A stretch of 64,000 nucleotides of DNA from a virus (lineage: Duplodnaviria > Heunggongvirae > Uroviricota > Caudoviricetes), in IMG/VR virus record IMGVR_UViG_3300021254_000030, one strand, 5' to 3'. A model generated the notes under the pieces. It made no database searches. It worked only from the letters and a program-made list of their open reading frames with translations, and was not told where the DNA came from. The position numbers and the translations under genes were made by a program. This document shows, piece by piece, positions 7,531 to 52,027 of this stretch. Numbering within the stretch: the stretch's first letter is position 1; each line of letters opens with the position of its first letter.

Positions 7531-7620
7531 TTGCACAAAAAGTTAAATGAAAATTTGTTGATTATGTATATTGACACAAAACTTGGCGCGCCTGGGTTGT
7601 AGGCGCGCCAGCCTTAGGAA
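7531..7620 (+). promoter_or_regulatory. rightward promoter-like element with GGCGCGCC hairpin (copy 2, weaker -10)
   Basis: TTGCACAAAA operator half-site, TTGACA 7571-7576, hairpin GGCGCGCC TGGGTTGTA GGCGCGCC at 7584-7608. Confidence 0.35.
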
Positions 7621-7956
7621 GTTATCCTAAAGCCGGCATAGCCTTTTATCTGCTCCATCTTGTAAAGATGAAAGCAAGAACAACAGCAACAAGAATATAA
7701 GCAGTGCCAAGGTGAGGCTGAGAACCAGGGTAATAATAATACAACATTAATCTTCCTCTCTTTCTTTCTTTTCATAGTGGTTACAGGCGAAAACCGTCAT
7801 ATCACCTTTTTCGCAAATGTCGCAGTCACAGCAACCCTCTTTGCGTTTAACGCAATCTTTACAGAGACAGCACATACATGTTATATTATTCATTTTTTTT
7901 TATTTCCTTTCTTTTGATAATATTATTTTATTAAATTTTTTATTTTTTGTCAACTG

Positions 7957-8250
7957 TTACACTGTGGTATCAACACCACAGAGTAACAGAACATAACAAA
8001 TGCAAGTGAAAGCGAACGGCCCCATTTTAGTAGGAATAACATCATAAACATTTGGATATAATTCCTCAATACCTGTTAAGAGCATTCCGCCCCAATTACC
8101 GCCACAAGCTACACAATGACCAAGAAAATCAGTCATAGTACCACGAAAAGGATTAACAGTAAAAGCGGTTTCAATAACTTTTTTACCATTTTCTCCCCAG
8201 TTTTCAACAAGATAATTCTGTGCTTCAATAATCATATCGTAAGTAATCAT
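7957..8250 (-). CDS. hypothetical protein
   Basis: Track ORF trimmed to ATG at 8250 (MITYDMIIEAQ) with RBS AAAGGAAAT. Confidence 0.45.
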   Translation of the reverse strand: MITYDMIIEAQNYLVENWGENGKKVIETAFTVNPFRGTMTDFLGHCVACGGNWGGMLLTGIEELYPNVYDVIPTKMGPFAFTCICYVLLLCGVDTTV

Positions 8251-8349
8251 AATTTTATTTCCTTTCTGTTGTTTTCTTCTTGACAATTATTATTATATCA
8301 AATAATGGGAATAATACAATAGGCAAAATAAACAAAAAATAGATAAAAA

Positions 8350-8408
8350 AATTGTTAAACATTACATATTGACAAAAAAAAATGGCGCGCCTGGGTTGTA
8401 GGCGCGCC
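8350..8408 (+). promoter_or_regulatory. GGCGCGCC hairpin element (copy 3, promoter weak)
   Basis: TTGACA 8371-8376 then hairpin GGCGCGCC TGGGTTGTA GGCGCGCC, with the same loop as copy 2. Confidence 0.3.
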
Positions 8409-8450
8409 AAAAAAGGCTACCACTCTATAAAGGGTGGTAGCCCTGTAAAA

Positions 8451-8855
8451 TTACTCGACATCAGTCTCGCCGTCAGCGTCAGCGTCAGGGGCAACAAAAT
8501 CAATCCCCTGGACGGCGTAGAAAGTCTTTTTCTTAAAGACCTTCTTCTGCACCTGGCCCGCCTTTACAAGCTGACCCAGCAGGGCGCCAACCTTCTGCAC
8601 GCTGTACTCGGCCATGCGGTCATCGTCACGGATAGCAGTCATGGTGACGAACTCTTCAGCCTCGCCAAGGATGTCAAGGATGACCGCCTTCAGCTCCTCG
8701 TTCAGCTTCTGCGTCTTAGTCGGACCGCCCTTGCTTCCACGCTTTGCCAGCTGTGCGGACAGAGCCTTCAGACGCTCGGTAGCCTCTGCATTGGTGTCAC
8801 CGATAGCGGTAAGTGCGATTGCGATTGCCTGTGCGTAAGTCATAGTGTTGGTCAT
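8451..8855 (-). CDS. paralog-family protein 1 (about 130 aa, acidic C-terminus)
   Basis: MTNTMTYAQAIAIALTAIGD...KRGSKGGPTKTQK... Shares about 50-60% identity with 12053..12454 and 14329..14712. Own promoter TTGACA-17 nt-TATAAT on the minus strand (plus coordinates 8908-8936) and terminator GGCTACCACTCTATAAAGGGTGGTAGCC. Confidence 0.55.
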   Translation of the reverse strand: MTNTMTYAQAIAIALTAIGDTNAEATERLKALSAQLAKRGSKGGPTKTQKLNEELKAVILDILGEAEEFVTMTAIRDDDRMAEYSVQKVGALLGQLVKAGQVQKKVFKKKTFYAVQGIDFVAPDADADGETDVE

Positions 8856-9314
8856 AATGAATACCTCTTCCTTTCAAATGCTTTTGTTTTGTTATCTTAT
8901 GTATTTATTATAGCAAAGTTTTTTTTATTTGTCAATAGTTTTTTTATTTTTTTTCGGGCGGATGGCGCGCACATCCTTTTTTAGCCCTACCCATGTATTT
9001 GTGTCATTGCGGATGGGCGTCCGCTCAACTACTAAACTTCATAGGCTTCTCCTTTGCCTAGTCCCTCGTTTCACTGTAATAAGTATATCACAGTGGTTCT
9101 TCCGTGTCAAGCCTTTTTTAGTAATTTTTTAGGTTTCGCTTTGCGGTCGTTCCATGGCACTAACGGCAAAGGTACTTTTCGGGGCTGTGCTAACCGTCTT
9201 GACTTTCGGCTCTCTCCCTCTCTCATTTTGTAATTAAATTATAACAGAATTTTTTTTATTTTGCAAGTACGAATATCGGGAAATTTTTTATCGGAAATTT
9301 GTTTAAAGTTTTAC

Positions 9315-9377
9315 TTGACAAATAGGCTGGAGTTGTGGTATAATGGATTTTTGGCGCGCATCGGTCGATGCGCGCCC
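9315..9377 (+). promoter_or_regulatory. rightward promoter plus GC hairpin (copy 4)
   Basis: TTGACA 9315-9320, TATAAT 9339-9344, hairpin GGCGCGCATCG GTC GATGCGCGCC at 9353-9376. Confidence 0.5.
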
Positions 9378-9408
9378 GACCAGTTTTTTATACCAGTCGG
9401 GCGTATTT

Positions 9409-9603
9409 TTATTTCTTAATTTTAATAGAATCTAAAATACTGTTATATAAATTAGTATAATCATCGTTACTCATAGCCAAAAAAGCCTTTGCTCCAAAAA
9501 AGTTTTCAAGAACTTTATTAACAGCTTCTATTGCTTCGGTGCAAAGGTCTTTTGAATCAAAACTAATTGAAAAGATTTTCTTTTCCGCATCATAATTAAA
9601 CAT
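9409..9603 (-). CDS. hypothetical protein
   Basis: Track ORF. Paralogous C-terminus with 9623..9826 (LYNSILDSIK versus LFNAILDAVK). Terminator CCCGACTGGTATAAAAAACTGGTCGGG. Confidence 0.45.
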   Translation of the reverse strand: MFNYDAEKKIFSISFDSKDLCTEAIEAVNKVLENFFGAKAFLAMSNDDYTNLYNSILDSIKIKK

Positions 9604-9622
9604 TCTTAATCCCCCTTTTCAA

Positions 9623-9826
9623 TCACTCATAATCAAAGTTTTCATTCTTTTCTTTTACGGCATCAAGGATTGCATTGAAGAGTTCTGCGAAGTTATTAGC
9701 AGGAAGATATACATCTGCATGCCCGTAAACGGTTTTAATAGCTACAAGGGCTCGCTCATAAATTTCATCTGTTAATTCATCCGGAATTGTCAGGTTAAGG
9801 TTGTTAAAAGTGATAGTTTTATCCAT
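9623..9826 (-). CDS. hypothetical protein
   Basis: 67-aa track ORF. Confidence 0.45.
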   Translation of the reverse strand: MDKTITFNNLNLTIPDELTDEIYERALVAIKTVYGHADVYLPANNFAELFNAILDAVKEKNENFDYE

Positions 9827-9829
9827 ATG

Positions 9830-10054
9830 TTACTCTCCTTCCTCTTCTTCTTCTGTGAAATCTAATTCTCTTAATTTTTCATAGCCCCATTTATCAAGAG
9901 CATTAGTTACTTCGCCAAGCAAACAAACATAAAAGAAATCAAATGTTTCATTACACTGAAGATTTTCAGGAACTTCAGTATCATAAACTTTAATCATTTC
10001 TAATATAGCTTTAGCACTGGCTTGACGGATATGACGAATTTCAGCAGGTGTCAT
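9830..10054 (-). CDS. hypothetical protein
   Basis: 74-aa track ORF with acidic tail. Confidence 0.45.
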   Translation of the reverse strand: MTPAEIRHIRQASAKAILEMIKVYDTEVPENLQCNETFDFFYVCLLGEVTNALDKWGYEKLRELDFTEEEEEGE

Positions 10055-10100
10055 GTTTTTATCTCCTTTGCTTTTGTTGATGATATTATTATATCATTTT

Positions 10101-10274
10101 TCAATAAGAAGTCAATACCTTTTTTAAAAAAAGTTTGTCTTTTCTGCGGGCGGCCCTGCGGAAACGCTTCTCTAAAGCATTTTTATTAGCATCGTGGGGA
10201 AGAATCTGTCGGCAGTTTAAAGCCCATGCCGTCATGTTTTTTACTGTTAATCTCTTGAAATAATCTTTAGTCAT
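10101..10274 (-). CDS. small basic hypothetical protein (57 aa)
   Basis: ATG at 10274, MTKDYFKRLTVKNM... Confidence 0.3.
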   Translation of the reverse strand: MTKDYFKRLTVKNMTAWALNCRQILPHDANKNALEKRFRRAARRKDKLFLKKVLTSY

Positions 10275-10370
10275 TTTATTTCCCCCTTTCTGAATAAAAG
10301 TATATCAAAAAATAAAGAAAAAGTCAACTATTTTGGGAAAAATATTTTTTATTTTTTTCTGCGGAAAAGC

Positions 10371-10444
10371 CTTGACAAAAAGACACACGTGTGATATAAT
10401 GGAAAACTTGGCGCGCGGCAGAGTGCAACGGCCAGCCGCGCGCC
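10371..10444 (+). promoter_or_regulatory. rightward promoter plus GC hairpin (copy 5)
   Basis: TTGACA 10371-10376, a 17-nt spacer, TATAAT 10394-10399, hairpin TGGCGCGCGGC...GCCGCGCGCCA at 10408-10444. Confidence 0.55.
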
Positions 10445-10465
10445 ATTCACATATATGAACTACAT

Positions 10466-10505
10466 ACGGGTAAAAAATCCAGTAAACTGAAATTCAGTTT
10501 ACTGG
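10466..10505. terminator. intrinsic terminator
   Basis: CCAGTAAACTGAAATTCAGTTTACTGG hairpin with flanking A/T runs. Confidence 0.5.
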
Positions 10506-10515
10506 ATTCAGTGGT

Positions 10516-10902
10516 TTACTTTTTAGGGGGGCGGTGCTTAACCAGTTTGACGGTATACGAATTACCGTTGAAGGTGAAACTGAATTCCGCTTCGTTCTTC
10601 ACACTGGACACCGCACCGCCGAACGCTTCAACGGCTGTTTTGATTGCGGTCAGCAGACCACCCTTTTCCGTATCCACCTTGCGCTCCCTCGTTGTTTTCT
10701 TCCTGGGGGCGTCAGACTTTTCATATCGTCTGTTGGCTTTTGCTTTTTCGGTCATGGCGTCCGCTTCCTCGTTGCTGATGTAATCATGGTCATCGAGCCA
10801 TGTTTCGATAGCCTCTTGAGTGGACAGGTCAAGGCTTGTTTTCAGCTTTTCAATATCCTTGTCAGGGATATTAATATCTTTCCCATTGAAATTGAATTTC
10901 AT
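10516..10902 (-). CDS. hypothetical protein
   Basis: 128-aa track ORF. Confidence 0.5.
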   Translation of the reverse strand: MKFNFNGKDINIPDKDIEKLKTSLDLSTQEAIETWLDDHDYISNEEADAMTEKAKANRRYEKSDAPRKKTTRERKVDTEKGGLLTAIKTAVEAFGGAVSSVKNEAEFSFTFNGNSYTVKLVKHRPPKK

Positions 10903-10971
10903 TTGAAACCCCCTTTAAAAACGGCTTTTTTGTTTTTCTATAAAAAATTTTATCAAAAAATTTTTATTTTG

Positions 10972-11664
10972 TCAAGCGGAAAAAAGCCGTTTTTCCATTT
11001 TCTTGTGCTGTCTAAAGCAATGGGCCATAATTTTAGTTTCGATTAAAACGTCCTCAAGTCCTGTATGGGATTCATCAAAATCATTAATTCCAGAAATATA
11101 TCTGTAAAGAATTTCGGCTGTAAGCCTAACCTGTGGCGTTTTGTGTTTTGTCATGTAGCCGTTGCGGATACAATATCTTTTATAGCTTGCCTGTTTTCCA
11201 ATTGTCTGTCGTGCCATTTTCAAAGTGTCCCAAATTTCCATGTTGTAAGGGAAAAAGAAACGCTTATTGGACTTTGTGACCCATCGGATAGTATTTGTAA
11301 GTGCTTTCCAGTCAAAACGTGCATTATGAGCAAAAATTGCGGAAACGCCATACTCTTTAATGTCAGACCAAAAAGCATTGTACATAGTCTGAAATCTAAC
11401 CAACTTCCGCTGTCCGCTCTTTACCTGCTCCCAATACATGGGAATTTTTTCAGCGTAGTATGCGGACTGCATAACGTCTTTCATGGCGACAAAAACTTCA
11501 TAAATCAGAAATGAGCGTGTCTTATAGATTCTACCTCTTTTGTCGGTAATCGCCCATCCAATATCGTAGACAATAGACTGGGACAGGTCCAGTTTATCAT
11601 CTACCATAATACCATTGCAAGTTTCAGTGTCCAGTCCCATAAGATACTTAATGCGCTTATCCAT
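10972..11664 (-). CDS. DnaQ-like 3'-5' exonuclease (DEDDh family)
   Basis: GLDTET (Exo I), FAHNARFD (Exo II) and HTGLEDV (Exo III). Start trimmed to MDKRIKYLMGLD. Confidence 0.65.
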   Translation of the reverse strand: MDKRIKYLMGLDTETCNGIMVDDKLDLSQSIVYDIGWAITDKRGRIYKTRSFLIYEVFVAMKDVMQSAYYAEKIPMYWEQVKSGQRKLVRFQTMYNAFWSDIKEYGVSAIFAHNARFDWKALTNTIRWVTKSNKRFFFPYNMEIWDTLKMARQTIGKQASYKRYCIRNGYMTKHKTPQVRLTAEILYRYISGINDFDESHTGLEDVLIETKIMAHCFRQHKKMEKRLFSA

Positions 11665-11747
11665 TCTATTTCTTTCCTTTCTGTGCTTTCCTCTTGACAA
11701 TTATTATTATAAGCGATAGGGTGCGGAAAAGCAAGGATTTTTTTCAA

Positions 11748-11866
11748 AAAATCTGCACAAATTTCGGGGGATCTAGTAAATAAAATTTGTGCAGATTTTT
11801 ACTTGACAAAAAGCTGGCAGGTATGGTATAATGGAAATTTCGCCGCGGCCCGGAGGACCGCGGCGC
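11748..11866 (+). promoter_or_regulatory. rightward operator-promoter-GC-hairpin module (copy 6)
   Basis: Inverted repeat CTGCACAAATTTCGGGGGATC...AATTTGTGCAG. TTGACA 11803-11808, TATAAT 11827-11832, hairpin CGCCGCGG CCCGGAGGA CCGCGGCG at 11841-11865. Points into the tRNA and paralog 2. Confidence 0.55.
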
Positions 11867-11937
11867 GAGCAAAAAAATAGGGCCGGTATTTCTACCGACC
11901 CACACACAGAAAGGAGGACAAATAATAGTTAGTCAAG

Positions 11938-12010
11938 CGTGCCCGAGGGGGATTGAACCCCTGACCCTCTGTTTAACAGACAGATGCTCTACCAACTGAG
12001 CTACAGACAC
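11938..12010 (-). tRNA. tRNA-Asn (anticodon GTT)
   Basis: The reverse complement folds as a cloverleaf: acceptor GTGTCTG/CGGGCAC (two G-U pairs), D-arm GCTCAGTTGGTAGAGC, anticodon stem TCTGT/ACAGA with loop CTGTTAA, T-arm AGGGG TTCAATC CCCCT. No CCA encoded. Terminator hairpin downstream. Confidence 0.8.
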
Positions 12011-12052
12011 TTATAAGCGGTTTTAAGGGATGACCGCAAACCCCCGAAAGGA

Positions 12053-12454
12053 TTAAGCGTCCTCGCCCTCGGACGCCTCAGCATCAGGGGCGACAAACTC
12101 TGTACCTGCGATAGCATACAGGGTGCGCTTCTTGTACACAGTCTTTACGACCTGCTCTGCCTTTACAAGCTGACCCAGGAGAGCCCCCATCTTCTGAGTG
12201 GACAGACCCTTGGGCAGACGGCTATCTTCTATCAGGTCAGCCATAGGAACAAAGTCCTCGACCTCTCCCAGAATCTCAAGGATAGTTGCCTTGAGAACCT
12301 CGTTCTCCTTCTGAGCCTTGGTGGGCCCGCCCTTAGAACCACGCTTTGCAAGCTGAGCCTTGAGAGCGGTAAGGCGGTCAGTAGCCTCGGGATTGGAATC
12401 GCCCAGAGCCTTGATTGCGAAGTCGATAGCAACAGCGTAAGTCATGTTAGTCAT
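12053..12454 (-). CDS. paralog-family protein 2
   Basis: MTNMTYAVAIDFAIKALGDSN...KRGSKGGPTKAQKENEVLK. Co-transcribed with the tRNA. Confidence 0.55.
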   Translation of the reverse strand: MTNMTYAVAIDFAIKALGDSNPEATDRLTALKAQLAKRGSKGGPTKAQKENEVLKATILEILGEVEDFVPMADLIEDSRLPKGLSTQKMGALLGQLVKAEQVVKTVYKKRTLYAIAGTEFVAPDAEASEGEDA

Positions 12455-12784
12455 ACTTTTTTCTCCTTTTTGATGATTTGATGTGTTTTTGTTTTCCTTT
12501 ATCTTATGTATTTATTATATCATAAGATTTTTTCTTTGTCAACAATTTTTTTTTATTTTTTTTCGTAAGTATGGCGCCAATGCTTACTACCTTTTATCTC
12601 TTTTCTCGCCAAAGAGAACGGACAGGTAATCCTTGAAACGCCATTTAGTCTATTTCCTTTTCCTTTTAAAGGTGGCTCTCAAATGGTAATCTGCCGAAAC
12701 AAGGAGTTCTTCTTTTAATTCCTCTCTCCCTTGGAACAATTATATTTTATCAAAATTTTTTAAAAAACACAATACCGGAATATT

Positions 12785-12905
12785 ACACAAATTACGGGAT
12801 CTGGACAGAGATAAGTTTGTGCAGTTTTTCGCTTGACAAAATCTCCAGCGTGTGTTATAATTGAAATTTCGCGGCGCGGTCGAGTGAAGCGTACGACCGC
12901 GCCGC
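12785..12905 (+). promoter_or_regulatory. rightward operator-promoter-GC-hairpin module (copy 7)
   Basis: Inverted repeat ACACAAATTACGGGATC...TTTGTGCAG. TTGACA 12833-12838, a 17-nt spacer, TATAAT 12856-12861, hairpin GCGGCGCGGTCG...CGACCGCGCCGC at 12871-12905. The minus-strand terminator GGGGGCTAATAAGCCCCC (12919-12936) follows. Confidence 0.55.
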
Positions 12906-12945
12906 GGGCAAAAAAAATGGGGGCTAATAAGCCCCCTATCTGAAC

Positions 12946-13395
12946 CTACGCAATCAGAGCGGACAGCGCAGGAATGATATTTTCAGTTGCGTTGATAGTG
13001 TCTCCCAGATGCCAACCATTACGGACCTTTTCGTTGTCATCTACCAAAATCTGAAAGCCCCCGAGGTGGCGAGTGCAATTAGCCTTGGTAGTGCCATATT
13101 TGACGAGGTGGAGTTCATCGAAAGGGAAGTCGTAGCGGTCAAGCCATGCCTTTTTTGCGGCTCTCACCTTTGCGTCATATTCAGGGGTAGAATCTTTAGC
13201 AAGCCACGAAGTAACAACGATGCGCCATCCATCATTCCGCAGAACCCACAAGATAGCGGTCAGGAGTACCATGTCATAAAGGGGCTGTGCTTTTTCATAA
13301 GGAGTAGGGTCTTCCGTATTGAGCATCCGAAGCCATCCATCGACACCATACAGGTCAGCGATTGTACCATCCATATCGAATACGAGTGTTTTCAT
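12946..13395 (-). CDS. HAD-superfamily 5'(3')-deoxyribonucleotidase-like
   Basis: FDMDGTIADL (HAD motif I) with later Asp motifs. 149 aa. Confidence 0.6.
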   Translation of the reverse strand: MKTLVFDMDGTIADLYGVDGWLRMLNTEDPTPYEKAQPLYDMVLLTAILWVLRNDGWRIVVTSWLAKDSTPEYDAKVRAAKKAWLDRYDFPFDELHLVKYGTTKANCTRHLGGFQILVDDNEKVRNGWHLGDTINATENIIPALSALIA

Positions 13396-13457
13396 TTTGT
13401 TATCTCCTTTCCTTTTGTTGATTATATATTATCACGTTACATGGAATTTGTCAATAG

Positions 13458-13682
13458 TTATTTTAAAAAATTTATGATTAAAGCAAGTGTCAATCCGCTA
13501 AAAATTGCATCTTTTACTTTGTCCGCAACTGGATTCTTTATGATGAATCCTCTTGTAAACATAATAATATTGGATACAAGATAGCAAGATTGCCCTAAAA
13601 GGTAATATTTACCAATTGTAATTTGAGCAATAGCAAGCAAAGCGATAACAAAATACATAGAATTTTCAGCAATTTTTTTCAT
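13458..13682 (-). CDS. small membrane protein
   Basis: Two hydrophobic helices in 74 aa. Confidence 0.4.
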   Translation of the reverse strand: MKKIAENSMYFVIALLAIAQITIGKYYLLGQSCYLVSNIIMFTRGFIIKNPVADKVKDAIFSGLTLALIINFLK

Positions 13683-13737
13683 TTTATTGTCTCCTTCTCC
13701 TTTGATAATTATATATTATCATACATTGGAGAGGTTG

Positions 13738-14076: not shown

Positions 14077-14162
14077 TTTGCTATCTCCTTTTATTTTTTG
14101 TGCTTTCCTCTTGACAATTATTATTATAAGGGATAGGCTCAAAAAACACAATAGACAGAATG

Positions 14163-14285
14163 TACAAATTTCGGGATCAAATTTTGTTTATTTTTTTATC
14201 ATTTTTCTCTTGACAAAAAGGCCGGCGGTATGGTATAATGGAATCCCGGCCCGCAGCGGAGCCAAACGCGCAGCCGCGGGCCGGG
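14163..14285 (+). promoter_or_regulatory. rightward operator-promoter-GC-hairpin module (copy 8)
   Basis: TACAAATTTCGGGATC half-site. TTGACA 14210-14215, TATAAT 14234-14239, GC hairpin 14246-14285. Terminator GGGGTAGCAACTTTTAAGGTTGCTACCCC at 14291-14320. Confidence 0.5.
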
Positions 14286-14328
14286 CACAACAGGGGTAGC
14301 AACTTTTAAGGTTGCTACCCCTTTGAGT

Positions 14329-14712
14329 TTATTGGTCAGCATCCTCTGCGGAAGCATCGTCCGCAAGGGAGTAGACCACATGCTTCTTATCCTTGCCCTT
14401 GACGACCTTGCCGTCCTGAGCAAGCTGACGAATCAGTGCCCCGAGTTTCTGGGTGGACATACCGTCAGGCAGTCGGGGGTCAGAAATCAGCTTGGACATG
14501 CCGACAGGCTCTTCCGCCTCTGCGAGAATATCGAGAATCATGCTCTTGAGGACTTCGTTCTCTTTCTGGGTCTTGGTAGGGCCACTCTTGCTTCCACGTT
14601 TTGCCAGCTGTGCCTTGAGGGCTTCCAATCTCTCCTGGGCGTCCTTATGGGAGTCACCCATAACCTCAAGTGCAACGTTGATAGCTTCTGCATAAGTCAT
14701 AACATTTGCCAT
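14329..14712 (-). CDS. paralog-family protein 3
   Basis: MANVMTYAEAINVALEVMGDSH...KRGSKSGPTKTQKENEVLK. Confidence 0.55.
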   Translation of the reverse strand: MANVMTYAEAINVALEVMGDSHKDAQERLEALKAQLAKRGSKSGPTKTQKENEVLKSMILDILAEAEEPVGMSKLISDPRLPDGMSTQKLGALIRQLAQDGKVVKGKDKKHVVYSLADDASAEDADQ

Positions 14713-14943: not shown

Positions 14944-15070
14944 ATTGCACAAATTACGGGATCGTAAGTGTTCAAAGTTTGTGCAAATTGCCGATTGATT
15001 TTTTTCTGGTGGGGGTGGTATAATTGAATTTTCGCCGCGCGGTCGCTAGGGACGTACGACCGCGCGGCGG
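14944..15070 (+). promoter_or_regulatory. rightward operator-promoter-GC-hairpin module (copy 9)
   Basis: Inverted repeat TTGCACAAATTACGGGATC...TTTGTGCAA. TTGATT 14994-14999, TATAAT 15018-15023, hairpin CGCCGCGCGGTCG...CGACCGCGCGGCG at 15033-15070. Confidence 0.5.
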
Positions 15071-16010: not shown

Positions 16011-16133
16011 ATGCACAAATTACGGGATCTAAAAGGATTGATTTTTGTTTATTTTTCCTATTGACAAAAAGGCTGGCGGTATGGTATAATGAAAAGACAC
16101 CCCGCGCTGGCTGAGGGGCGCGCCAGCGCGGGG
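16011..16133 (+). promoter_or_regulatory. rightward operator-promoter-GC-hairpin module (copy 10)
   Basis: ATGCACAAATTACGGGATC half-site. TTGACA 16061-16066, TATAAT 16085-16090, hairpin CCCCGCGCTGGC..GCCAGCGCGGGG at 16100-16133. Confidence 0.55.
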
Positions 16134-16183
16134 CGGGCAAAAATCCATCCCCTATTTTTATAGGGGATGGAACAGAAAGGGGT

Positions 16184-16384
16184 TTACGCCTTAGGAGCGA
16201 CCGCCTTGAAGCGGACAAAGGGATGACGCTTGCCGGACTTGATGGCTTCCGCAAGGTACTTTTCCCTTGCCTCTTTTTCATCAGGGGGAGTGATTTCTAC
16301 AAGCTGAACGTATTTCTCGGGGAAAGGCATGTCCTTAACATCGTCATAGGTGAACAGGCCGCCAGCGTAGATAACTTTTCTCAT
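16184..16384 (-). CDS. hypothetical protein
   Basis: 66-aa track ORF. Early promoter TTGACA-17 nt-TAGAAT and RBS AAAAGGAGAAAATACT upstream. Terminator TCCATCCCCTATAAAAATAGGGGATGGA. Confidence 0.5.
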   Translation of the reverse strand: MRKVIYAGGLFTYDDVKDMPFPEKYVQLVEITPPDEKEAREKYLAEAIKSGKRHPFVRFKAVAPKA

Positions 16385-16844: not shown

Positions 16845-16968
16845 TATTGCACAAAATTATGGGATTTCAACGTCTGACCTTTGTGCAGATTTCCAACTTG
16901 ACAAAATCTCAGCCACATGATATAATGGAACTTCGGGCCGCGGCGGTGAGAAGCAGTCCGCCGCGGCC
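16845..16968 (+). promoter_or_regulatory. rightward operator-promoter-GC-hairpin module (copy 11)
   Basis: Inverted repeat ATTGCACAAAATTATGGGAT...TTTGTGCAG. TTGACA 16897-16902, a 17-nt spacer, TATAAT 16920-16925, hairpin GGGCCGCGGCGG...CCGCCGCGGCCC at 16934-16968. Confidence 0.55.
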
Positions 16969-16994
16969 CGGCCAAATAGCCAGACCGCGGTTTT

Positions 16995-17831: not shown

Positions 17832-17962
17832 AATATTGCACAAAATTATGGGATTGTCGCCTCAGATTTTTGTGCAAATTTCCGACTTGATTTTTTTGGC
17901 ACAGTATGTTATAATGGCAACTCGGCGCGGCCTGGTCTGAAATGGCCAAGCGCGCGCCGCGC
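17832..17962 (+). promoter_or_regulatory. rightward operator-promoter-GC-hairpin module (copy 12)
   Basis: Inverted repeat ATTGCACAAAATTATGGGAT...TTTTGTGCAA. TTGATT 17887-17892, TATAAT 17910-17915, GC-rich inverted repeat 17923-17962. Terminator GGGGGAGCGTTTGCTCCCCC. Confidence 0.5.
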
Positions 17963-18559: not shown

Positions 18560-18628
18560 TTGACAATTGGCTGTCACGTGTGGTACAATATTTCGGCCTG
18601 CAGCGGCCGCGCTGGCTGGCTCTGGCCA
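18560..18628 (+). promoter_or_regulatory. rightward promoter plus GC-rich element (copy 13, no operator)
   Basis: TTGACA 18560-18565, an 18-nt spacer, TACAAT 18584-18589, then GGCCTGCAGCGGCCGCGCTGGCTGGCTCTGGCC, which contains a NotI site. Confidence 0.45.
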
Positions 18629-42478: not shown

Positions 42479-43018
42479 ATGAATTATAAAGATTTAGGAT
42501 TACGTCTTAATACAGATACTTATTTTATTGATGTATAGGGAACTAGAATTAATATTAAAAAATATCTCCCTATCAATGATAAAAAGGATTTAATTGAAAT
42601 TACACTACAAAAAGCAGAATAGACAGATGGTACATACAATGAGATATTAATTGATATGTATTTTAATTTATATCTTGTTTATCTATATTCAGATATTGTT
42701 TTTTCTGACGAAGATAGAGAAGATGAAATGAGACTTTATGATGAATTAGAAAGCAGCGGACTGCTTGAAAGAATTGTTGATAAAATACCGGATTCAGAAT
42801 ATAATATTTTAATTAAATATCTGGAAGATATGGAAAAGAGCAGTCTTTCATATAAACATAGCGCAGCAGCTATGGTACAAAAGTTGATTGTAGATTTGCC
42901 GAAAAATGCAGAAGCGGCCGCAAAAATTGTACAAGATTTTGATCCAGAAAAATATAAGGAAGTTGTATCTTTTGCACAACATGCAAATAACAATAGGCCA
43001 ATTCCTATAAATCAATAA
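42479..43018 (+). CDS. putative tail assembly chaperone (179 aa, 2 TAG)
   Basis: Acidic protein immediately upstream of the tape measure. RBS AAAGGAGATAAAAGG. Confidence 0.4.
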
Positions 43019-43117: not shown

Positions 43118-46100
43118 ATGGCTCAACAAGGAGGAAGAATTGATTTTCAAATTGGGTTTAAAGCCGATAAATCTGGTATTTAGGATTTAAAGAAATCTTT
43201 ACAATAGATACAAAAAATTAAACCTGCAAATTTCGATGGAACTAAAGAAGATTTGCGGGAAGTGAAAAGTGTTGCGGCGGATGTAGAATCTGCCTTAACA
43301 AAGGCTTTTAATCCTAATATTAATTCTATTAATTTAAAAACATTTGATAATGAATTAAAAACGTCAAAAAGATCAATTGACGATATATATGCCAGTTTTT
43401 CTAAGGCGGGCGCTCAAGGCTAGGTCGCATTTAGTCAAATGGCAAGATCTGTTTTAACTACTAATCAACAGTTAAAATAGACACATAGCTTAATTAACTA
43501 GATGGGAACCACAATGGTGAATACTGTTAAGTGGGGAATCGCATCTAGCGTAATGAATACTTTTACATCAAGTGTTCAAAGTGCTTTTAAATATGTTGAA
43601 AGTTTAGAGAAATCATTAACTAATATTAGAATTGTTACGGGTGATTCTCAAGAGAAGATGTAGCAATTTGCGGCGTCCGCTAATCGTGCTGCGCAGGAAC
43701 TAGGTCGTAGTACTATGGATTATAGCAAGGCCGCATTAACTTTCTACCAGCAAGGTTTGGATGAGGATGCTGTTTAGGCTAGAACACAGGCTGTATTAAA
43801 AGCGCAGAATATTACTGGCGCAGGGTCTGAGATGGCCGACTATATGACATCTGTATGGAATGGTTATAAAGTTGCCAACGAATAGGCGTAGCTCTATGTC
43901 GATAAACTGGCCGCAGTTGCAGATAGCAGCGCATCTGACATGAGTTAGTTAGCTGTTGCTATGTCTAAAGTTGCATCTACCGCAAGTACCTTGGGTGTTG
44001 ATGCAGACCAATTAAATGCTCAACTTGCTACTGTTATTGCTACTACGAGACAGGCTCCAGAGGCGGTCGGTACTGCTTTTAAAACTATTTATACTCGTAT
44101 GAATGATATAAAAGCTGGAACAGATGATGCATAGATTAGTTTAGGTAACTACTCAGGAAAAATGGCAGAATTAGGTTTTAATGTACTTGATGCTACAGGT
44201 CATTTAAGAGATACTGGGTAGGTTATGTAGGAAATAGGTTCCCGCTGGGATACTTTAACGAAAGAGCAACAAATCTATTTAGCTACCACTATGGGTGGTC
44301 AGAGACAAGTCAACCAGTTAATTGCTTTGTTTGATAACTGGACTACTTATAGCGAATTATTAAATACCTCTCTAGAATCTGAAGGTACTCTTGCACAGAA
44401 AAATTCTGTTTATCTTGAGTCTCTTGGTGCTAAGATGGAACAGCTAGGCGCTGCAGGAGAACGTGTTAAAGCTAGTTTAATTGATAGTGAAAGTTTTGGT
44501 AATGTTATTGATCTATTGACTACTGGGACTAATTTACTTGGTACTTTTATTTAGAGTATTGGCGGCGGTGGCGCTGCATTACTTGGATTAGGCGGTATCG
44601 CTACACAAGTGTTTGGCGGAGTAATTTCTAAAGAGATTAATACGGCTATTACTAATTTCCAAAATATGAGATTTAATATTGAGCAAGGCAAAAAAGAAAT
44701 GGCTTTAACTCAATAGTTTGGAGAATCTCAAGGTTATCAACAAGGTGCTATTAATGAGATGCTTGATGCTAAACGATAGATGCAAGAATTTTATTCTGTT
44801 ATGTCTGTTGAATAGCGTAAATCTTATAATGCTATTGTTGAACAAATCGGCGCTGCAAAAGAGCAAGTTATTTTAGAACAAGAAAAAGTTGATAGAGCAA
44901 AAGAATATGAAAGAGCTTTAACATAGGCTGGAAAAATAAATAAAACTGATTTTTAGGGACAGTAGGATTTAATTGCAGAAGATATAAAAACTATTATTAC
45001 TTCTATTGAATCTTTGCAGTAGGCTACTTCAAATGCTGATAAACTTGAATATTTTGATAGAATGATCGACCAGGTTGATCAATTAAAATTTAGCCTAGGC
45101 GATTTAAATGATAAAGATATTAATAAAGCCTTTTCAAATTTAGAAGATTTAAAACAAAGAAGAGAAAAACTTATTAATGATAGAAATGATGTAGCAGTAG
45201 TAGATTAGTTTGGCCAGCAAGAATATGATAATTATACCAAACAAATAGATGCTGTTGAAGAAAAAATTCAAAAAGCAGTAATTAATATAAAAAATGCTAT
45301 TTAGAGTGTTGCAAATCTTCATATAGATATGGAAGTTAATGAAGATAACGTGACTTAGGCACAAAAGAAATTAGAGGATTTAAAGAAAACTGCTGCTTAG
45401 GTTCAACAGCAAATGTCTCAAGGTCTTACTGTATCAAATATAGTACAAGGTATTGGTGCATTAGGTCAAGCAACATCAGCTTTAATGGCATTTGGAAATA
45501 GTATAAAAACTATTTTTGATGATAGTGTACCTCCAGCATAGAAATTCTTTAAAGTAATTTTAAGTGGTTCTTATGCTATTCCTACGCTAGTAACAAGTAT
45601 ACAAAAATTAAATACTATTACTAAAGCTGTGTCTGCGGCAACTATAAATGCTACAAAAATTCAAGCTGCTAAAAATGCTATTCAACAAGCCTAGGTTACA
45701 GTTGAACAGGAGGCTGCGGCTGCTAAAGGTGCAAATGCGGCAGCAGCTGGTGGAGAGGCTGCAGCTACAGCAGGAAGCACTGCGGCAACAGGAGCAGATA
45801 CCGTAGCGAAAGAAGCAGATAATGCGGTAACAACGCGATTAACAATTGCACAAGACGCATTAAACGCTGCAATGGCTGCAAATCCAATAGGATTGGCCTT
45901 AGCTGTTATGGCGGGGCTTGTCGTAGCTGTGACGGCAGCGACTGCCGCGTATGACCATTTCCATATGTCTACTGAGTAGGCAGGTTAGGCTATTGATAAT
46001 TTTAATCAAAAAGCAGAACAAACTAAAAATACTGTTAAGCAATATAATTCTGATTTATCTAATTTAGATAGCGCAAAAGATGAGTGGGAAAAGTTATCTA

Positions 46101-49100
46101 ACCGTGCGGGAAGTTATAATTCTACTATTGATAATTTAACCGAAGATGAGAAAGCGCGTTATTTTGAATTAAGTAATTTAATTGCTCAATATAATGAGGG
46201 TGCTGTTGCAGGTTATGATGAACAAGGCAATGCTATTATTGCTAATAATGATGCTCTAAAAGAGACTATTTAGTTATTAAAAGAAAAACGTCGAGCATAG
46301 TTAGATTCTACTTATGATAGTGAAGAGTTTAGAAACGCAGAAAAAGGTAAACAAGTTCTTTACGATAACGCAAAAGACAAAAAAGAATTGAATGAAGGCC
46401 TGCTTGAAGATACTACTTCACATTTAACTAATCAATTATAGGCAAGAGGTCGCTCATTAACCGCAGCATTTGAAACCGCAGATAAAGATACTCAAGAGCA
46501 ACTATCAGCATATAATGAGCAATTAACAGAAATTCTTGCTGGTGGAGCAAAATAGATCTTTGAGAAACGAGAATAGTTAATTAAAATTTTTGAGCAATTT
46601 CAAGATAAAGGTTTACTTCCAGCAGATTTTACAGTAGCTTCTATTAATGAATTAAAAACTTTTAATGATTCTATAAAAGATATAGAAGGTAATATAAGTG
46701 ATGCATAGAAATAGATAAAAAATCTTGAAAGACTTAATATTCAAGAAATTACCAATATACTTCAAACTTCTAATTATGACAAATATTATTCTTAGTTAGA
46801 AGCAGCAGGTAATCAAAATATAAATGCAATTATAGCCGCTTATGCATCAGGAATGGATTCTGTTGATGAAAATGGAATACGGCTTACATCAGAGGCGGCC
46901 GCCCAAAAAATAAATGATGATTTTCTTTCAGTCTTTTCTGAAACGTTAGGTAAAGTTGATGAAGATACTGGTGTATCAATTTATCAAGGTTTTCTTGATA
47001 AAATTGCTAATGACGAAAATTTACAAAAAAATAATTTTTCATCATTACAAGAAAAAAATGCTTATATAAAATAGCAATTAGAGAATTTCTTTAAAGAAAA
47101 TCAAGATATGTTAAAAGGATTTGAAGGAGCTTCAGATAAATCTAAAGAAGCTATTTAGAAACTTTTAGCGAACGCTTTTAATATTTAGGATATTAATATT
47201 GATTTTAATACGGGAAAAATAGAATCTATAGCTAATGAGCGAATGTCTGCTCTTCACGATAGAATTAAAGAAATAGTTTAGAACGAGCGAGGAAAAGGTG
47301 CTGCAGGGTTATCTAATGATATTATTTCTTCATTATTACCTTCTGATATAGATGAAGCGTAGTTTGATTATATAATAGAGAATTTTGAAAGATTTTATAA
47401 AAAAATAGGAGATGCAAAGAAGGCTCTTGAAGAAGCTACTTCTTAGTCTTTAACTACATCAAATCTTTCTTAGAACTTAGGCACTTTAGGTTTAGCGAGT
47501 CGACAAAATCAAGGCTAGAATTTATCTCAAAAATAGACTGATAGTTTATTGCAAGGATTAGAATAGTTAGGAAGAATTTATCCATAGCTAGATTAGGCAG
47601 CTAATATTTTAGCTCAAGATCAGCTCGCAGGTACAGCACAATATCAAGCAGCTTTACAAGATGTTAATAATACTTTAATATAGAGTACTCTTCATGCTAT
47701 AGAAATGGCAGATGATGGAGGGGAAGCAATAAAAACAGCTTATACTGAAGGTCTTTCTACTGCTGCACAAGCTATTGACGCTTTTGAAGCTGGTATTTTA
47801 ACATCTGGAGATAAAATAAACGAATCTTTAGCTTTTACTGCAACAAAATTATCTGAACTAGATGATTTATTAGGATACGGGGCTATTTCAGGAGAAACTT
47901 TTGGGGCTGCTTTACAATCAGTATCTGACACAGAAGCTGCATCTTATGGATTAAATATTGATGAATATTAGAGTTATGTTGATCTTCTTCGTGCCACTAA
48001 TGAAGAATATGCAAATAATGAATTTTTAGCAAGACAAGTTGCTATTGCTAATGAGAGAATTGCAAAAGGAACAGAAGACTTAATAGATAATTGGAAAGAT
48101 TGGAATGATGCTATTTCTGATTATATTAATTCAGGTGATGATGTTTTAGCATTAGCTGATGACTGGGGAGAGTTGAAAGAAGCTATTGCCAATACTTTTA
48201 ATATGTAGCCTGAAGCGGTAGATATGTTAGGCCCCAATTTTGTAGCAGACAACTGGGATAAAATTCAACAAGTTAAAGATGGTGTTGAAGGAGCCTGGGA
48301 AGAGTTAGATGCTTTAATGAGTCAAACTCTAGTTCTTAATGCTTATGGAGTCGCAGATTTTTCTGAATTAGATCAAAATATACAAGATGCTTATAATGCT
48401 ATACAAGAATTAGATGGAACTAACGTTTCTATCGTGGCGGGTATGGAAGGTACTGATGATATATTAAATGCTTTCCAAACGATTGCAGACGGAGCCCATT
48501 GGACATCATCTGAAGCACAAGCTGCTTTTAGCCAAATGGGATATAGTGTAGAAGTTCAAGAAAAGCCTGATGCAATGCATAGTCAGACTGAAGAGACTCA
48601 ATACTATGTACCACCTACTTACACAATGGAGTCAGTGCCTTTTACTTTAGGCCCTTTTGGAACAACGGGAAGTATATCTTATCCTACAATTTCTCAAGAA
48701 GCTCACTATGAATCTGCCGGGGGAGGAACAAAATAGAGTTATGAGCCTGGAGCTTATACTATAAAATCAGTAACTTCTAACGGTAAATCTTCTGGTGGTA
48801 AAATATCCCGGAAAACAGTCGGCAATCATGGAGGAGGAAAATCTTCTGGTGGCAAAGGCGGAAGAGGTAAAAAAGGAAAGGGAGGAAAAGGTAAGAAAGG
48901 TAAATCTTCTACTCCTAAAACTCCGAAAACTTAGAAGTCGGTAAAAGATACTCAAGATCGTTACCATGATGTTAATATAAAATTAAAAGATATTGATAAT
49001 GAATTATCAAAAGTCAATAAAGAACAAAGCAAATTAACGGGTCCAGAGTTATTAAAAAATCTTGAATAGCAACAAAAACTATTAGATAAACAAGTTGCTA

Positions 49101-52027
49101 CCTATAAAGAAAAATTAGAATTAGAAAAACAATAGAGGGATTAGGTACGAAATAGATTAGCTAAATAGGGAGTTACTTTTGATCCTAGTGGTAATATCGC
49201 TAACTATTCTAATGCTCTTTCAAAAGCACTTGCCGATTATAATGCCGTAATAGCTAAATATAATCAGATGAGTGCGGAAGATCAATAGAAGAACAAGAAT
49301 ATGTTAGATAATGCTAAATAGAAATATGAAACTATTAAAAAAGATATTTAGCGTTATGATAAAATTGTTTCAGAAGAAATTCCTGGTCTTGAAAAATCTG
49401 TACAAGAGGCAATTGATAAACAAACTGAAATTAATATTGAAAAATTTAAAATAAAAGTTGATTTATAGCTAGATTTGTCTGAAGCATAGCGTGAATTTAA
49501 TTAGTTCCAAAATAAAGTTAAAAAACAGTTAAGAGACGATGACGTATTAGGTCAGGCCAAGGCTTCATTTAAAAACTTATCTTCTTATTACAAGAACGGA
49601 TATGACGTTATACAAAGTTTAACAGACCAAGTTCGTAATACGTTAACAGAAATTAATCAAATTGATAGCAGAGGGTATTCTGCGGTATACGGTAACAATA
49701 AGGCGGCCGCCCTTGAAGATTTAAAAAACTATATGAAATAGTTAATGAGCAATCTTTAGGACGTAGAAGATATAGTCAATAATATTAAAAATTCTATTTT
49801 TGATGCTATTGATAAAGCACAAGAGGCTTTTGATGAACAATAGAAAGAATATGAACAAATTACAGATTTAATTGACCATAATAAACAGGTTGTTTAGCTG
49901 TTACGCGGAGATGATGCCTATAAAGAATTAGAAAAGTATTATAAGTTACAATAGACGAATAATAATAAAGAATTAGATTTCTTACGTCAACAAAAAGATT
50001 TATGGTACAGTCGTATGAAAGAATAGGAAGTTCGCATGAAACAACTTCCTGAAGATTCTAACGAATGGAAATAGGCAAATGATAGATTTAAAGAATATGA
50101 AAAACATTGGTTAGATTCTTTAGATTCTTTAAACGATAAAGTTGAAGATGCTATTGAAAATATTATTGATAAATATACCAATGCTATTGATAAAGCCTTT
50201 GATAAATTAGAAAATAAATTAACTAAAAATAAAGGTTTAGAAAATATTTCTGAAGAATGGGAATTAATTAATAAGCAGGCGGACATGTATTTAGATCAAG
50301 TAAATTCTATGTATGAAATAGATAAACTTGAAAATGCATATCGTGATGCTATTAAAGACAATGATGGTAATTTAAAGGCTCAGAAATCATTAAATAATAT
50401 GATGAATGAGCAATTAAAGTTTTTACGAGATAAAGATAAATTAACTCAATATGATGTTGATAGAGCAAACGCTTTATTACAAATTGAAATAAAACGTTTA
50501 GCATTATAGCAGCAAAGACAAAGTAAAACTAAGTTAAGACTAAGACGTGACGCGCAAGGTAACTATACTTATCAATATACTGCGGATGAGGAAGCTAGCC
50601 AACAGGCTCAGCAAGAACTAGCGGACGCTGAAAACAGTTTATATAATATGACTAAATAGGCTTATAAAAATAACCTAGATTCATATTATGATACAGTAGA
50701 GGATTGGCAAGATAAAGTCAAAGATGTTTATAAAGATACTACATTAACTGTTGATTAGCAGCAAAAGAAAGTTGCAATGCTAAATGAATATTACGGCGAC
50801 ATTATTAATGGTCTAACTCAGAATAATGAAGATTTAAAGAAATACATGATGGAAGATACATTTAATGAAATGGCTAAAATGTATGATACCAATGTTGATA
50901 ACTTTAAAGCTATGACACAGGCTGAGAAAGATATTATAATGAAAGATATGGTTCCTTACTGGAAATCTGGTATCCAAGAAATGGCGGACGTGGTTGCGAA
51001 ATCTGATGGCGGATTCTTACCAGTAACGAAAAATGCTTTCAAAGAATTAGATAATGCCACTAAAGAATATGTTAATTCCTTAGATGATATATAGGCGGCC
51101 GCGCAGGTTAATTTCGATGCTGTTGCTAATGGAGTGGATAACAATATCGCAAAAACTGAAAATCTTTTAGATACTAATAATAAATTAATAGATGGCTATG
51201 ATAAAGAATTAGACAGAGTGCAAGCCGTAATCAATGAAGTTCAAAATTTAGTAGATACTTATAAACTTGCTAAAGATGAGGCTCTTGAAGCAACAAATGC
51301 CGCATATAAATTCATCCAAGCCGATTCAAAAAAGACTAAAACAGAAGCAAATAATAATAATTATTATGGCGGCAGTGGTGGCAGCACGGGAGGAAATAGT
51401 GGAAGCTCTTCTTCTGGTAACGGGAATAGTACAAGTAGCAACGGAGGAAGTAAGGCTAATAATACTTCTTCAGCTTCAGGAAACAAAACAAATAGTAGTA
51501 ATAATTAGAATGTGCTGTTTAGCGGAGCAGGATCAAAGATTACAAATGGAACTATTTTTAAAGTGAATGACCCAGAAGATCAAGGTATTTTAGCAGGTTC
51601 CGCGGCGTTGTAGGAATTAAAGAAGAAAAAGAATAGCAATAAGATTTCTCTTGTTGATTTAAAGAGCGGAAAGATTTCTTCTTATGCTTCTGGCGGATAT
51701 ACTGGAGACTGGGGTAACGACGGAAGATTAGCAATTTTACATTAGAAAGAATTAGTTCTAAACAAAGATGATACTTAGAACATCTTATCTGCAATCCAAA
51801 TCGTTAATCATTTAGATGATATATTAAATAGTTTTAAAATTAATACAAATTAGCAAACAGGTCTTTTAAATGAATTTACTCGTCGTTCAAGTGAACAGGA
51901 CGGAATTGGTCAAAATATTATAATCAACGCTGATTTCCCGGCCGCAAAAGACCATATGTAGATTGAAGCTGCTTTTGATAATCTCATTAATCGAGCAAGT
52001 CAATTCGCTTTTAAAAATAGACGATAA
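43118..52027 (+). CDS. tape measure protein (about 2969 aa; on the order of 100 in-frame TAG, no TAA/TGA)
   Basis: Track ORFs 44291, 46853, 47705, 48224, 50285, 50777 and 51134 all sit in frame 2 with ATG 43118. Hand translation of 43118-46900 shows only TAG interruptions. Hydrophobic segment at about 45840-45960. G/S/N-rich tract 51361-51508. Ends TAA TAA at 52025. Confidence 0.6.

Follow-up and report, generated by a model that had tools for sequence, protein, structure and literature searches.

NotI and AscI palindromes of an AT-rich, TAG-recoded phage as probable by-products of early hairpin cassettes and a flank-dependent GC bias

The promoter-early stem-loop (PeSL) cassettes of T4-type phages (Arbiol et al. 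2010, PMC2839356; Comeau et al. 2014, PMC4122927) pair strong sigma-70-like promoters with stable G/C-rich stem-loops, recur many times between the small, variable open reading frames (ORFs) of an early, plastic region, and are more conserved than the genes around them; in one subclass, the stem-loop lies just downstream of the -10 box (PMC2839356). These cassettes appear to be the nearest described analogue of a set of hairpin cassettes found in 64,000 nucleotides of DNA from a tailed phage (Caudoviricetes; IMG/VR record IMGVR_UViG_3300021254_000030), a stretch that we analysed over its whole length and refer to as the window. The closest named phage, phAss-1, is described as a TAG-recoded gut phage of the proposed Phassvirus group (Babkin et al. 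2023, PMC10607447; GenBank OQ749652), and the abstract and section 2.1 of that paper mention neither hairpin promoters nor a bias towards GC runs. The GC content of the window is 33.2%, and it contains ten G/C-only palindromes of 8 bp—five NotI sites (GCGGCCGC) and five AscI sites (GGCGCGCC). The explanation that we favour, at a probability of about 65%, is that these ten palindromes are by-products of the early hairpin cassettes and of a genome-wide tendency to complete GC-only runs, with no recognition-site system behind them.

The NotI sites lie at positions 18603, 42914, 46895, 49703, and 51095, and the AscI sites at 7585, 7602, 8384, 8401, and 16117; all ten had been pointed out, to within 0-9 nt, in an earlier, sequence-only reading of this DNA. 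Its estimate that composition predicts fewer than 0.1 of each agrees with Markov models of order 0 (0.036 per word) and order 1 (0.088). Across the whole window, expectations rise to 1.04 NotI and 0.42 AscI sites at order 3 and to 3.2 and 2.5 at order 5; for the late region, where four NotI sites were observed, they are 0.56 (order 3), 0.93 (order 4), and 3.1 (order 5). The counts are real and far above simple expectation, and words of four to six nucleotides already carry much of the excess. The sites have two origins: six of them (all five AscI sites and NotI 18603) lie in GC-only hairpins of the early region, and four are NotI sites in frame within late genes. Confinement of the motifs to promoter hairpins, which the sequence-only reading had set against its own proposal, accordingly describes half of the picture, with the AscI sites and one NotI site confined to hairpins and the four late NotI sites outside them. 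Its suggestion of structured elements holds for the six early sites, which sit in hairpins whose stems show compensatory changes.

All four late sites are on the plus strand, in genes that use TAG as a sense codon. From 24.7 to 57.9 kb the standard code yields short ORFs, whereas translation with TAG as sense yields an unbroken plus-strand block, including open frames of 2971 codons (43115-52027) and 1494 codons (52134-56615); the tape measure gene (43118..52027, plus strand, 2969 codons) is a single ORF only under this code. One NotI site, GCG GCC GCA at 42914..42921, encodes Ala-Ala-Ala in ORF 42449-43018, immediately upstream of the tape measure gene and a putative chaperone gene by its position only, its PHROG matches being families of unknown function. 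The remaining three lie in the tape measure gene itself, near residues 1260 (46895..46902, GCG GCC GCC), 2196 (49703..49710, GCG GCC GCC), and 2660 (51095..51102, GCG GCC GCG, immediately after an in-frame TAG), the first two each inside the 10-bp palindrome GGCGGCCGCC. In frame 0 with TAG as sense, the four contexts are EAAAK, EAAAQ, KAAAL, and QAAAQ.

Codon choice, rather than amino acid sequence, accounts for these words. Alanine in the late genes is encoded by GCA 261 times, GCT 289, GCG 92, and GCC 66, and Ala-Ala-Ala occurs at 13 positions; when synonymous codons are shuffled within genes, 0.21 NotI sites are expected, four or more appeared in 0 of 2000 shuffles, and any single GC-only 8-mer reached four copies in 1 of 1000. 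This failure of synonymous shuffles to reproduce the excess bears out the earlier opinion that its cause is not at the protein level. When the next codon starts with GC, GCG makes up 0.24 and GCC 0.26 of alanine codons, and a context-aware estimate by hand, multiplying such conditional codon use by the 13 Ala-Ala-Ala positions, gives about 0.6-0.8 NotI sites, leaving a roughly 5-fold excess. Nor is the excess one of NotI alone—synonymous shuffling predicts 5.6 GC-only 8-mers in the late genes against 31 found, 0.22 NotI sites against 4, and 0.12 copies of GCCGCCGC, which is not a palindrome, against 3.

To place these sites in context, we drew on two sets of relatives: 1.15 Mb of sequence around the sigma gene of 80 relatives, here called the clade, and 202 kb of late region from the window and nine relatives. 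Among the four late NotI sites, one is shared, with one of the nine relatives, and the others correspond to one-off variants or to unrelated codons. The shared site is 49703, which recurs in L004 and is one change away in L003 (GCT GCC GCA); at 46895 the relatives have ACG GCC GCA, ACC GCC GCA, or AAT GCC GCG, and the Ala-Ala-Ala at 51095 is found in no relative. In relative L006, a NotI site is formed instead by GGC GGC CGC, where four relatives have GGT GGC CGC. Positions with NotI thus have near-misses one change away (GGT GGC CGC for GGC GGC CGC; GCT GCC GCA for GCG GCC GCC), and across the 202 kb NotI occurs 10 times while GCCGCCGC and its complement together occur 13 times.

The late sites follow from a broader bias in third codon positions. 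Fourfold degenerate third positions in the late genes of the window are G or C at a frequency of 0.34 when both flanks are G/C dinucleotides and at 0.08-0.14 next to A/T, whereas the corresponding values for Enterococcus phage EF1, which has a similar composition (33.5% GC), are 0.14 and 0.11-0.15, flat at 0.09-0.15. GC-only 6-mers number 120 in the late genes against 38.5 +/- 8 expected (z about 10), and GC-only runs in general reach 3-5.5 times the synonymous-shuffle prediction; EF1 shows no such excess (6-mers 40 vs 39.4; 8-mers 5 vs 4.2). In 64,779 codons of the clade, the codon pair GGC CGC is found at 26 times expectation, GCC GCC at 7.5, GCC GCA at 5.4, and GCG GCC at 4.9, with NCC GCN pairs at 4-8 times. 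The two most over-represented junction words, GC|GG (z 6.9) and CC|GC (z 6.7), form a reverse-complement pair, and NotI read as GCG|GCC|GC is made of favoured junctions. Similar excesses of GC-only 6-mers are seen in the minus-strand genes at 20-24.6 kb (31 vs 13.3) and in the genes at 0-5 and 58-64 kb, the latter concerned with nucleotide metabolism (34 vs 12.2), and the early genes, with their higher GC, still show the flank dependence. Strand symmetry, presence in most gene classes, and absence from EF1 together point to a lineage-specific process acting on DNA. The bias is unlinked to translation, late genes, alanine, or palindromes. Of the original claims, then, selection at the DNA level stands in its DNA-level part, given a bias that is reverse-complement symmetric and present in most gene classes; the writing of late alanine runs as GCG GCC GCN stands insofar as four sites are indeed in frame, and falls insofar as the bias is restricted neither to late genes nor to alanine.

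We propose that a preference for G or C at third positions between G/C dinucleotide flanks would create GC-only runs in coding DNA, turning Ala-Ala-Ala into GCG GCC GCN, Gly-Gly-Arg into GGC GGC CGC, and Ser-Gly-Arg into AGC GGC CGC; NotI would be one of several such words, gained and lost by single synonymous changes. Several other origins of the bias were considered and set aside. Avoidance of GCWGC (TseI-type) sites does not fit, as GCAGC (25 vs 22.3) and GCTGC (19 vs 16.7) are undepleted in the late region under a maximal-order Markov model, and NCC|GCN is also enriched in Ser, Thr, and Pro codons, which make no GCWGC. An oriented, Chi-like motif was rejected—the strand bias of GGCCGC (45 vs 17) is due to the frame NNG GCC GCN, and the junction words show reverse-complement symmetry. 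Nor are there large mosaic patches of raised GC: autocorrelation of third-position GC is weak and gone by lag 4, indicating a local effect. A tie of NotI to late genes or to translation by phage tRNAs is contradicted by the same bias in non-late genes on the other strand, and a generic property of AT-rich phages by its absence from EF1. CCGG, for its part, reaches 0.26-0.30 of its expected count, and the 4-mers with the strongest inflation are CCGC and GCGG, each one change away from it; avoidance of CCGG inflates these two words, which are the halves of NotI, in Markov models, and does not by itself explain the codon-level bias.

The early sites belong to a different setting. Between about 5 and 20 kb, the window carries small minus-strand genes with good ribosome-binding sites (RBSs), each with its own consensus promoter and terminator; that these genes are real is indicated by three paralogues among them and by one with the DMDGT motif of the haloacid dehalogenase-like (HAD) hydrolase type. 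A full 12/12 match to the sigma-70/sigma-A-type consensus is shown by seventeen promoters at 5-25 kb. The window has 11 GC hairpins with a perfect stem of 8 bp or more, all within 6.5-19.7 kb, and 7 of them directly follow a -10 box on the plus strand. At least eleven plus-strand promoters are capped by a GC hairpin of this general kind, the perfect stems measuring 8-13 bp and beginning 2-10 nt past the -10 box, with folding energies of -17 to -37 kcal/mol for the first 60 nt. All eleven point into terminators and 3' ends of minus-strand genes.

Two of the eleven contain sites of interest, in hairpins that start 6-10 nt past the -10 box. The first (16061..16133) joins a 12/12 promoter (16061-16090) to a 12-bp GC hairpin (16100-16133), with AscI 16117 across the loop and 3' arm, and faces terminator 16171..16144 and the 3' end of the minus-strand gene 16184..16384. 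The second (18560..18627) joins an 11/12 promoter, TTGACA-N18-TACAAT (18560-18589), to an imperfect GC hairpin containing NotI 18603; the homologous element of relative L015 also has a NotI site, at its position 3913. The other nine comprise consensus promoters at 5446..5501 (hairpin 5'-proximal and antisense to minus-strand genes), 9315..9376 (followed by the 24-nt GC palindrome GGCGCGCATCGGTCGATGCGCGCC), 10372..10445 (11-bp hairpin), 11803..11865 (facing the terminator of the minus-strand tRNA-Asn gene at 11937-12010), 12833..12906 (13-bp hairpin), 14210..14286, and 16898..16970 (13-bp hairpin), and 10/12 promoters at 14995..15069 (13-bp hairpin) and 17887..17962 (imperfect hairpin). The elements at 12833 and 14995 are paralogues, whose hairpins (12870 and 15033) are set apart by a compensatory G-C to C-G swap, and the one at 16898 has orthologues in L015 and L019 with compensatory stem changes. 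Orthologous promoter hairpins from the window, L015, and L019 have stems CGGGCCGCGGCGG, CGGCCCGCGGCG, CGGTCCGCGGCGG, and CGGGCCGCAGCGG, each complemented by its other arm. When the early region is aligned (blastn) with those of L015 and L019, most matches are 25-190 nt long, many-to-many, and located at regulatory cassettes, with most of the gene bodies between them unrelated. Mimicry of CRISPR repeats by the hairpins was set aside, as stem and loop sequences vary from copy to copy.

Hairpin-capped promoters also stand apart in the clade, whose loci contain 744 unique near-consensus promoters, 48 of them with a hairpin of -20 kcal/mol or below in the first 60 nt. An RBS and start codon follow within 70 nt in 2 of these 48, compared with 323 of the other 696. 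Downstream of the 48, the promoter strand is 44.5% purine, and RBS-plus-ATG combinations average 0.21 on the same strand and 0.77 on the opposite one; downstream of 308 promoters with an RBS and start codon, the values are 58.3%, 1.52, and 0.07. The RBS counts and purine skew together identify the hairpin-capped promoters as a distinct class, antisense or convergent to genes. These two measures replaced a longest-ORF test of promoter orientation, which was confounded by shadow ORFs; many long ones lie on the plus strand opposite true minus-strand genes of the window (e.g., 8382..8984 and 13009..13584), where they carry a risk of mis-annotation. Two further arrangements were noted at these promoters. 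A 38-nt inverted repeat, GCACAAA-N24-TTTGTGC, often with an internal TTACGGGAT, is present in five exact copies against 0.02 expected (11755-11792, 14947-14984, 16849-16886, 17838-17875, and 19043-19080), and between the end of each copy and the -35 box of the plus-strand hairpin promoter downstream there are 10-13 nt; the repeat looks like an operator. In relatives L033 (about position 2079) and L086 (about 1496), two consensus promoters face each other across one GC hairpin, whose stem lies 2-10 nt away from the TATAAT of either strand.

The other four AscI sites lie in two copies of a 27-nt GC hairpin, TGGCGCGCCT-gggttgt-AGGCGCGCCA, with a 10-pair stem and one AscI site per arm. The copy at 7584..7610 (AscI 7585 and 7602) is followed on the minus strand by AGTTTTGTGT, a weaker T-run, and lies directly downstream of small minus-strand ORFs ending at about 7614-7650. 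The copy at 8383..8409 (AscI 8384 and 8401) is followed on the minus strand by ATTTTTTTTT, a strong T-run, and heads the list of terminator-like sites in our scan; upstream of it are the minus-strand gene 8451..8855 and then a first hairpin, GGCTACCAC...GTGGTAGCC, with a T-run of its own. Both copies thus have the make-up of an intrinsic terminator, a GC stem-loop and T-run after a co-oriented gene, and they are the two best terminator-like sites of the scan. These two pairs are not promoter hairpins; TTGACA is found 8-9 nt upstream on the plus strand with no -10 box, the T-runs are on the minus strand, and the hairpins are terminator-like there.

This hairpin belongs to a clade-wide family, CGGCGCG-N13-CGCGCCG, in which the outer stem is conserved and the inner pairs covary. 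A search with [CG]GGCGC-N10-20-GCGCC[CG], allowing 22-32 nt, returned 40 distinct elements, 33 of them exactly 27 nt long, with the consensus CGGCGCGCCG, itself a palindrome. The search pattern fixes the outer six pairs, which are therefore uninformative on covariation; at inner pairs 7-9, the observed covariation score was reached in 0 of 500 shuffles, and 82% of cells pair, compared with 20-49% when partners are slid; five pairs show changes on both sides. The 27-nt family is a conserved structured element whose pairing is kept by compensatory changes, and it and the promoter hairpins alike are selected structures throughout the clade. In five more distant relatives (L052, L066, L072, L077, and L078), the 27-nt hairpins are flanked by tandem GTGTCAAGTAA and TGTAAA/TTTACA repeats, which look like arrays of -35-like boxes.

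Taken together, the early sites would arise because the stems are G/C-only and their arms often hold a self-complementary 8-mer, giving the five AscI sites and NotI 18603. Both window copies of the 27-nt hairpin would act as terminators after minus-strand genes, and the plus-strand promoters would fire into the terminators and 3' ends of neighbouring genes, so that their hairpins would form structured 5' ends of antisense or convergent transcripts. There, the hairpins would stabilise the antisense RNA or serve as attenuators or insulators between cassettes.

PeSLs, which these cassettes resemble in the pairing of promoter and stem-loop, in repetition between small early ORFs, and in being more conserved than the genes around them, end in the Shine-Dalgarno sequence and start codon of the gene that they drive, whereas only the 2 of 48 hairpin promoters noted above could do so, and the class points against genes. 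The stems also differ, being 8-13 bp of mixed G and C rather than polyG followed by polyC, as does the host promoter type, which looks Firmicutes-like, with a TG-extended -10 box. Intrinsic terminators match the two AscI stems and their T-runs after co-oriented small genes; in relatives, however, the 27-nt family occurs in both orientations, often without a T-run and often with -35-like repeats (TTGACA or TGTCAA) beside it, and it keeps a conserved sequence in the outer stem, something that a plain terminator can do without. Stem-loops at the 5' terminus stabilise bacterial and phage RNAs, for example the ompA, ermC, and SP82 leaders. The strong hairpins a few nucleotides from predicted transcript starts are similar to these, with the difference that the transcripts here would be antisense or non-coding and that in some relatives the stem lies so near the -10 box that its 5' arm would be transcribed only in part.

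We weighed our explanation against several others. Selection of GCGGCCGC and GGCGCGCC as targets of a sequence-specific enzyme—a phage or host methyltransferase, an endonuclease of the nicking or homing kind, or a factor in packaging or repair—would account for two words at 60-140 times base-composition expectation in both window and clade, and the phage has several homing-type nucleases in its packaging and head module—an HNH endonuclease (27406-27981), a PD-(D/E)xK-like nuclease domain of a PHROG 'homing endonuclease' family (29724-30086), and a LAGLIDADG endonuclease (35965-36981). Palindromes of 4-6 bp are strongly avoided, which suggests a genome shaped by nucleases: GATATC is found 0 times against 16.2 expected, AAGCTT 2 against 17.9, GTTAAC 3 against 13.2, GAATTC 6 against 20.3, CCGG 27 against 90.4, CCAGG 9 against 23.8, and GATC 88 against 175, with the codon-junction words TC|GA and C|AT also depleted. 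Such depletion of short palindromes is the classic form of restriction-site avoidance in phages, from which the enrichment of 8-bp palindromes differs in sign. Non-palindromic GC-only words are enriched equally, both in the window, as seen for GCCGCCGC, and in the clade, where CGGCGCGC occurs 84 times, GCCGCCGC 64, and CGCGCCGC 61; with strands merged, the class CGGCGCGC/GCGCGCCG leads the clade (84 copies in 38 loci, against 37 for AscI), AscI ties for fourth place (listed fifth), and NotI ties for eighteenth (listed nineteenth). Site positions are unconserved, single synonymous changes separating relatives, and neither methyltransferases nor restriction enzymes emerged when about 30 window proteins were scanned against Pfam and PHROG; the annotation of phAss-1, where most genes are labelled only 'hypothetical', lists none either. 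The enzyme-recognition proposal of the sequence-only reading, including the enzyme of matching specificity that it proposed to look for, therefore finds no backing in these proteins, in the unspecific words, or in their positions, and we regard target selection as very unlikely.

Recombination is an alternative that we rank as unlikely rather than very unlikely: in it, cassettes would shuffle early genes, and NotI would mark mosaic joints of the tape measure gene. The short many-to-many cassette homologies with L015 and L019 have the pattern described for PeSLs (PMC2839356) and are compatible with recombination between cassettes. The NotI site of L001 and L002 coincides with the joint where a hypervariable low-complexity stretch meets the conserved C-terminal domain, within the 18-bp palindrome CAAAGGCGGCCGCCTTTG, and NotI 51095 of the window is near a drop in identity. 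On the other hand, 49703 is in a uniformly conserved block and 46895 in a uniformly divergent one, the GC-run bias is diffuse and genome-wide rather than linked to joints, and neither recombinant junctions nor mini-circles were observed. A recombination role of the early hairpins can, in any case, coexist with the by-product explanation. Chance alone—two words of an uneven genome, singled out post hoc—gains something from order-5 expectations close to the observed counts and from the derivation of four of the five AscI sites from one duplicated hairpin, the words having been chosen after being seen. The rarity with which any GC-only 8-mer reached four in shuffled genes, the z of about 10 for late-gene GC runs and its absence from a control phage of equal GC, and hairpins that covary and are conserved across the clade speak against it; for GC-only runs as a class chance is already largely refuted, for the two words themselves it persists only within the by-product explanation, and as a full account we consider it quite unlikely. 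Vectors and linkers commonly contain NotI and AscI, both of them standard 8-cutter sites for cloning. An origin as an artefact of cloning, linkers, or assembly, or in an engineered genome, is nonetheless practically negligible, as the late sites keep the frame of the 2969-codon ORF, their flanks are ordinary phage sequence, and two of the sites have a counterpart at the homologous position of an independent metagenome contig (49703 in L004; 18603 in L015).

Several observations weigh against our own explanation. With its 10 copies, NotI outnumbers every other GC-only 8-mer when the late regions of the window and its nine relatives are taken together, and NotI (23) and AscI (37) are the two commonest GC-only palindromes in the 1.15 Mb of the clade, so that some word-specific preference for them may exist in addition; counts from relatives are, at the same time, phylogenetically non-independent. 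Five of the nine distinct late NotI sites (window and relatives) are preceded by AG, one of them in another reading frame, which we read as the same run-extension effect, but which could mark a longer DNA motif. The GC-run excess is non-significant in the higher-GC early genes (6-mers 38 vs 30.1 +/- 6.1). As to the cause of the bias, we infer either a slower decay of G/C to A/T inside GC runs or selection against short W-centred or CCGG-type sites. The proposed RNA role of the hairpins is likewise deduced from sequence, and in some relatives the stem begins only 2-3 nt past the -10 box, where a start site within the 5' arm would preclude a complete RNA hairpin. Two more specific readings, which we hold tentatively and consider possible though less than even, would go beyond by-products. 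In one, a dedicated regulatory system, hairpin-capped promoters, each preceded by GCACAAA-N24-TTTGTGC, may form a functional unit running antisense into early-gene 3' ends, with a phage protein that would read the conserved CGGCGCG stem, and the system may shut off or insulate early cassettes. In the other, a lineage-specific process at the DNA level may fill GC runs, through neighbour-dependent mutation or repair or through defence-driven selection against A/T flanked by G/C; such a process is undescribed for phages.

The window is a TAG-recoded phage and a distant relative of phAss-1. In-frame TAG codons number 188 in the late ORFs (24682-57886), 25 in the genes towards either end (0-5 and 58-64 kb), and 0 in the 38 early minus-strand genes tested (5000-24600). 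The tRNA-Asn is the sole tRNA of the window, which thus holds no suppressor tRNA, and an Rfam scan at gathering thresholds gave nothing beyond it. PHROG matches include a sigma factor (24682-25797), the HNH endonuclease, part of the terminase large subunit, a portal protein, and a virion protein; the terminase ORF (28168-29637) matches only C-terminal parts of terminase-related PHROGs, so this gene is possibly split or interrupted. Relatives with the same recoding are found in IMG/VR on contigs up to 142 kb, and the search with the sigma gene returned the 80 related loci, on contigs up to 156 kb. The major capsid protein is 51% identical to that of phAss-1, with remoter matches in Enterococcus phages of about 140 kb and in SPbeta-like phages, and megablast of the window against GenBank phages gave no match, phAss-1 included. 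Shared with phAss-1 are the type of phage (large and tailed, 136 kb against up to 142 kb for the window's relatives), the use of TAG as sense in structural genes, and a GCGCGCC...GGCGCGC hairpin adjoining the motif TGCACAAA; its 44.5% GC differs from the 33% here.

Further features of the early region were noted in passing. Its GC content at 6000-18000 is 35-43%, compared with 26-36% in the late region, and a long microsatellite of (ATT)n/(TTA)n, in which inverted repeats are embedded, lies at 19160-19300 on the border between the hairpin-rich part and the gene block at 20-24.6 kb. The three early paralogues (8451..8855, 12053..12454, and 14329..14712, minus strand) encode proteins of about 130 amino acids with a common motif, ...LKAQLAKRGSKGGPTK(T/A)QKENE..., and acidic C-terminal tails, and have no Pfam match; they are spaced at about 2.4 kb, the spacing of the repeated regulatory cassettes. 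At 8955-9110 on the minus strand, a promoter (9110..9082) leads into a 5-codon mini-ORF and GC-rich hairpins and has no protein gene after it; this promoter may drive a small non-coding RNA, for which Rfam gave no match.

Positive selection for 8-bp restriction-type palindromes would be a rare case, and the evidence against it here means that no hunt for an enzyme is warranted. The finding is best filed as a by-product of PeSL-like hairpin cassettes and of a lineage-specific, flank-dependent bias in third-position GC; specificity for recognition sites, for late-gene alanine codons, or for the NotI and AscI palindromes is not supported. Because third positions depend on their flanks, the counts of GC-rich words expected from composition are wrong by one to two orders of magnitude in these genomes, which matters for motif-enrichment scans of them. 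More broadly, the window belongs to a large, mostly undescribed clade of TAG-recoded phages with hundreds of near-consensus promoters, a subclass of which is capped by GC hairpins and directed against genes, and this subclass offers a testable model of antisense or insulator control of early genes.

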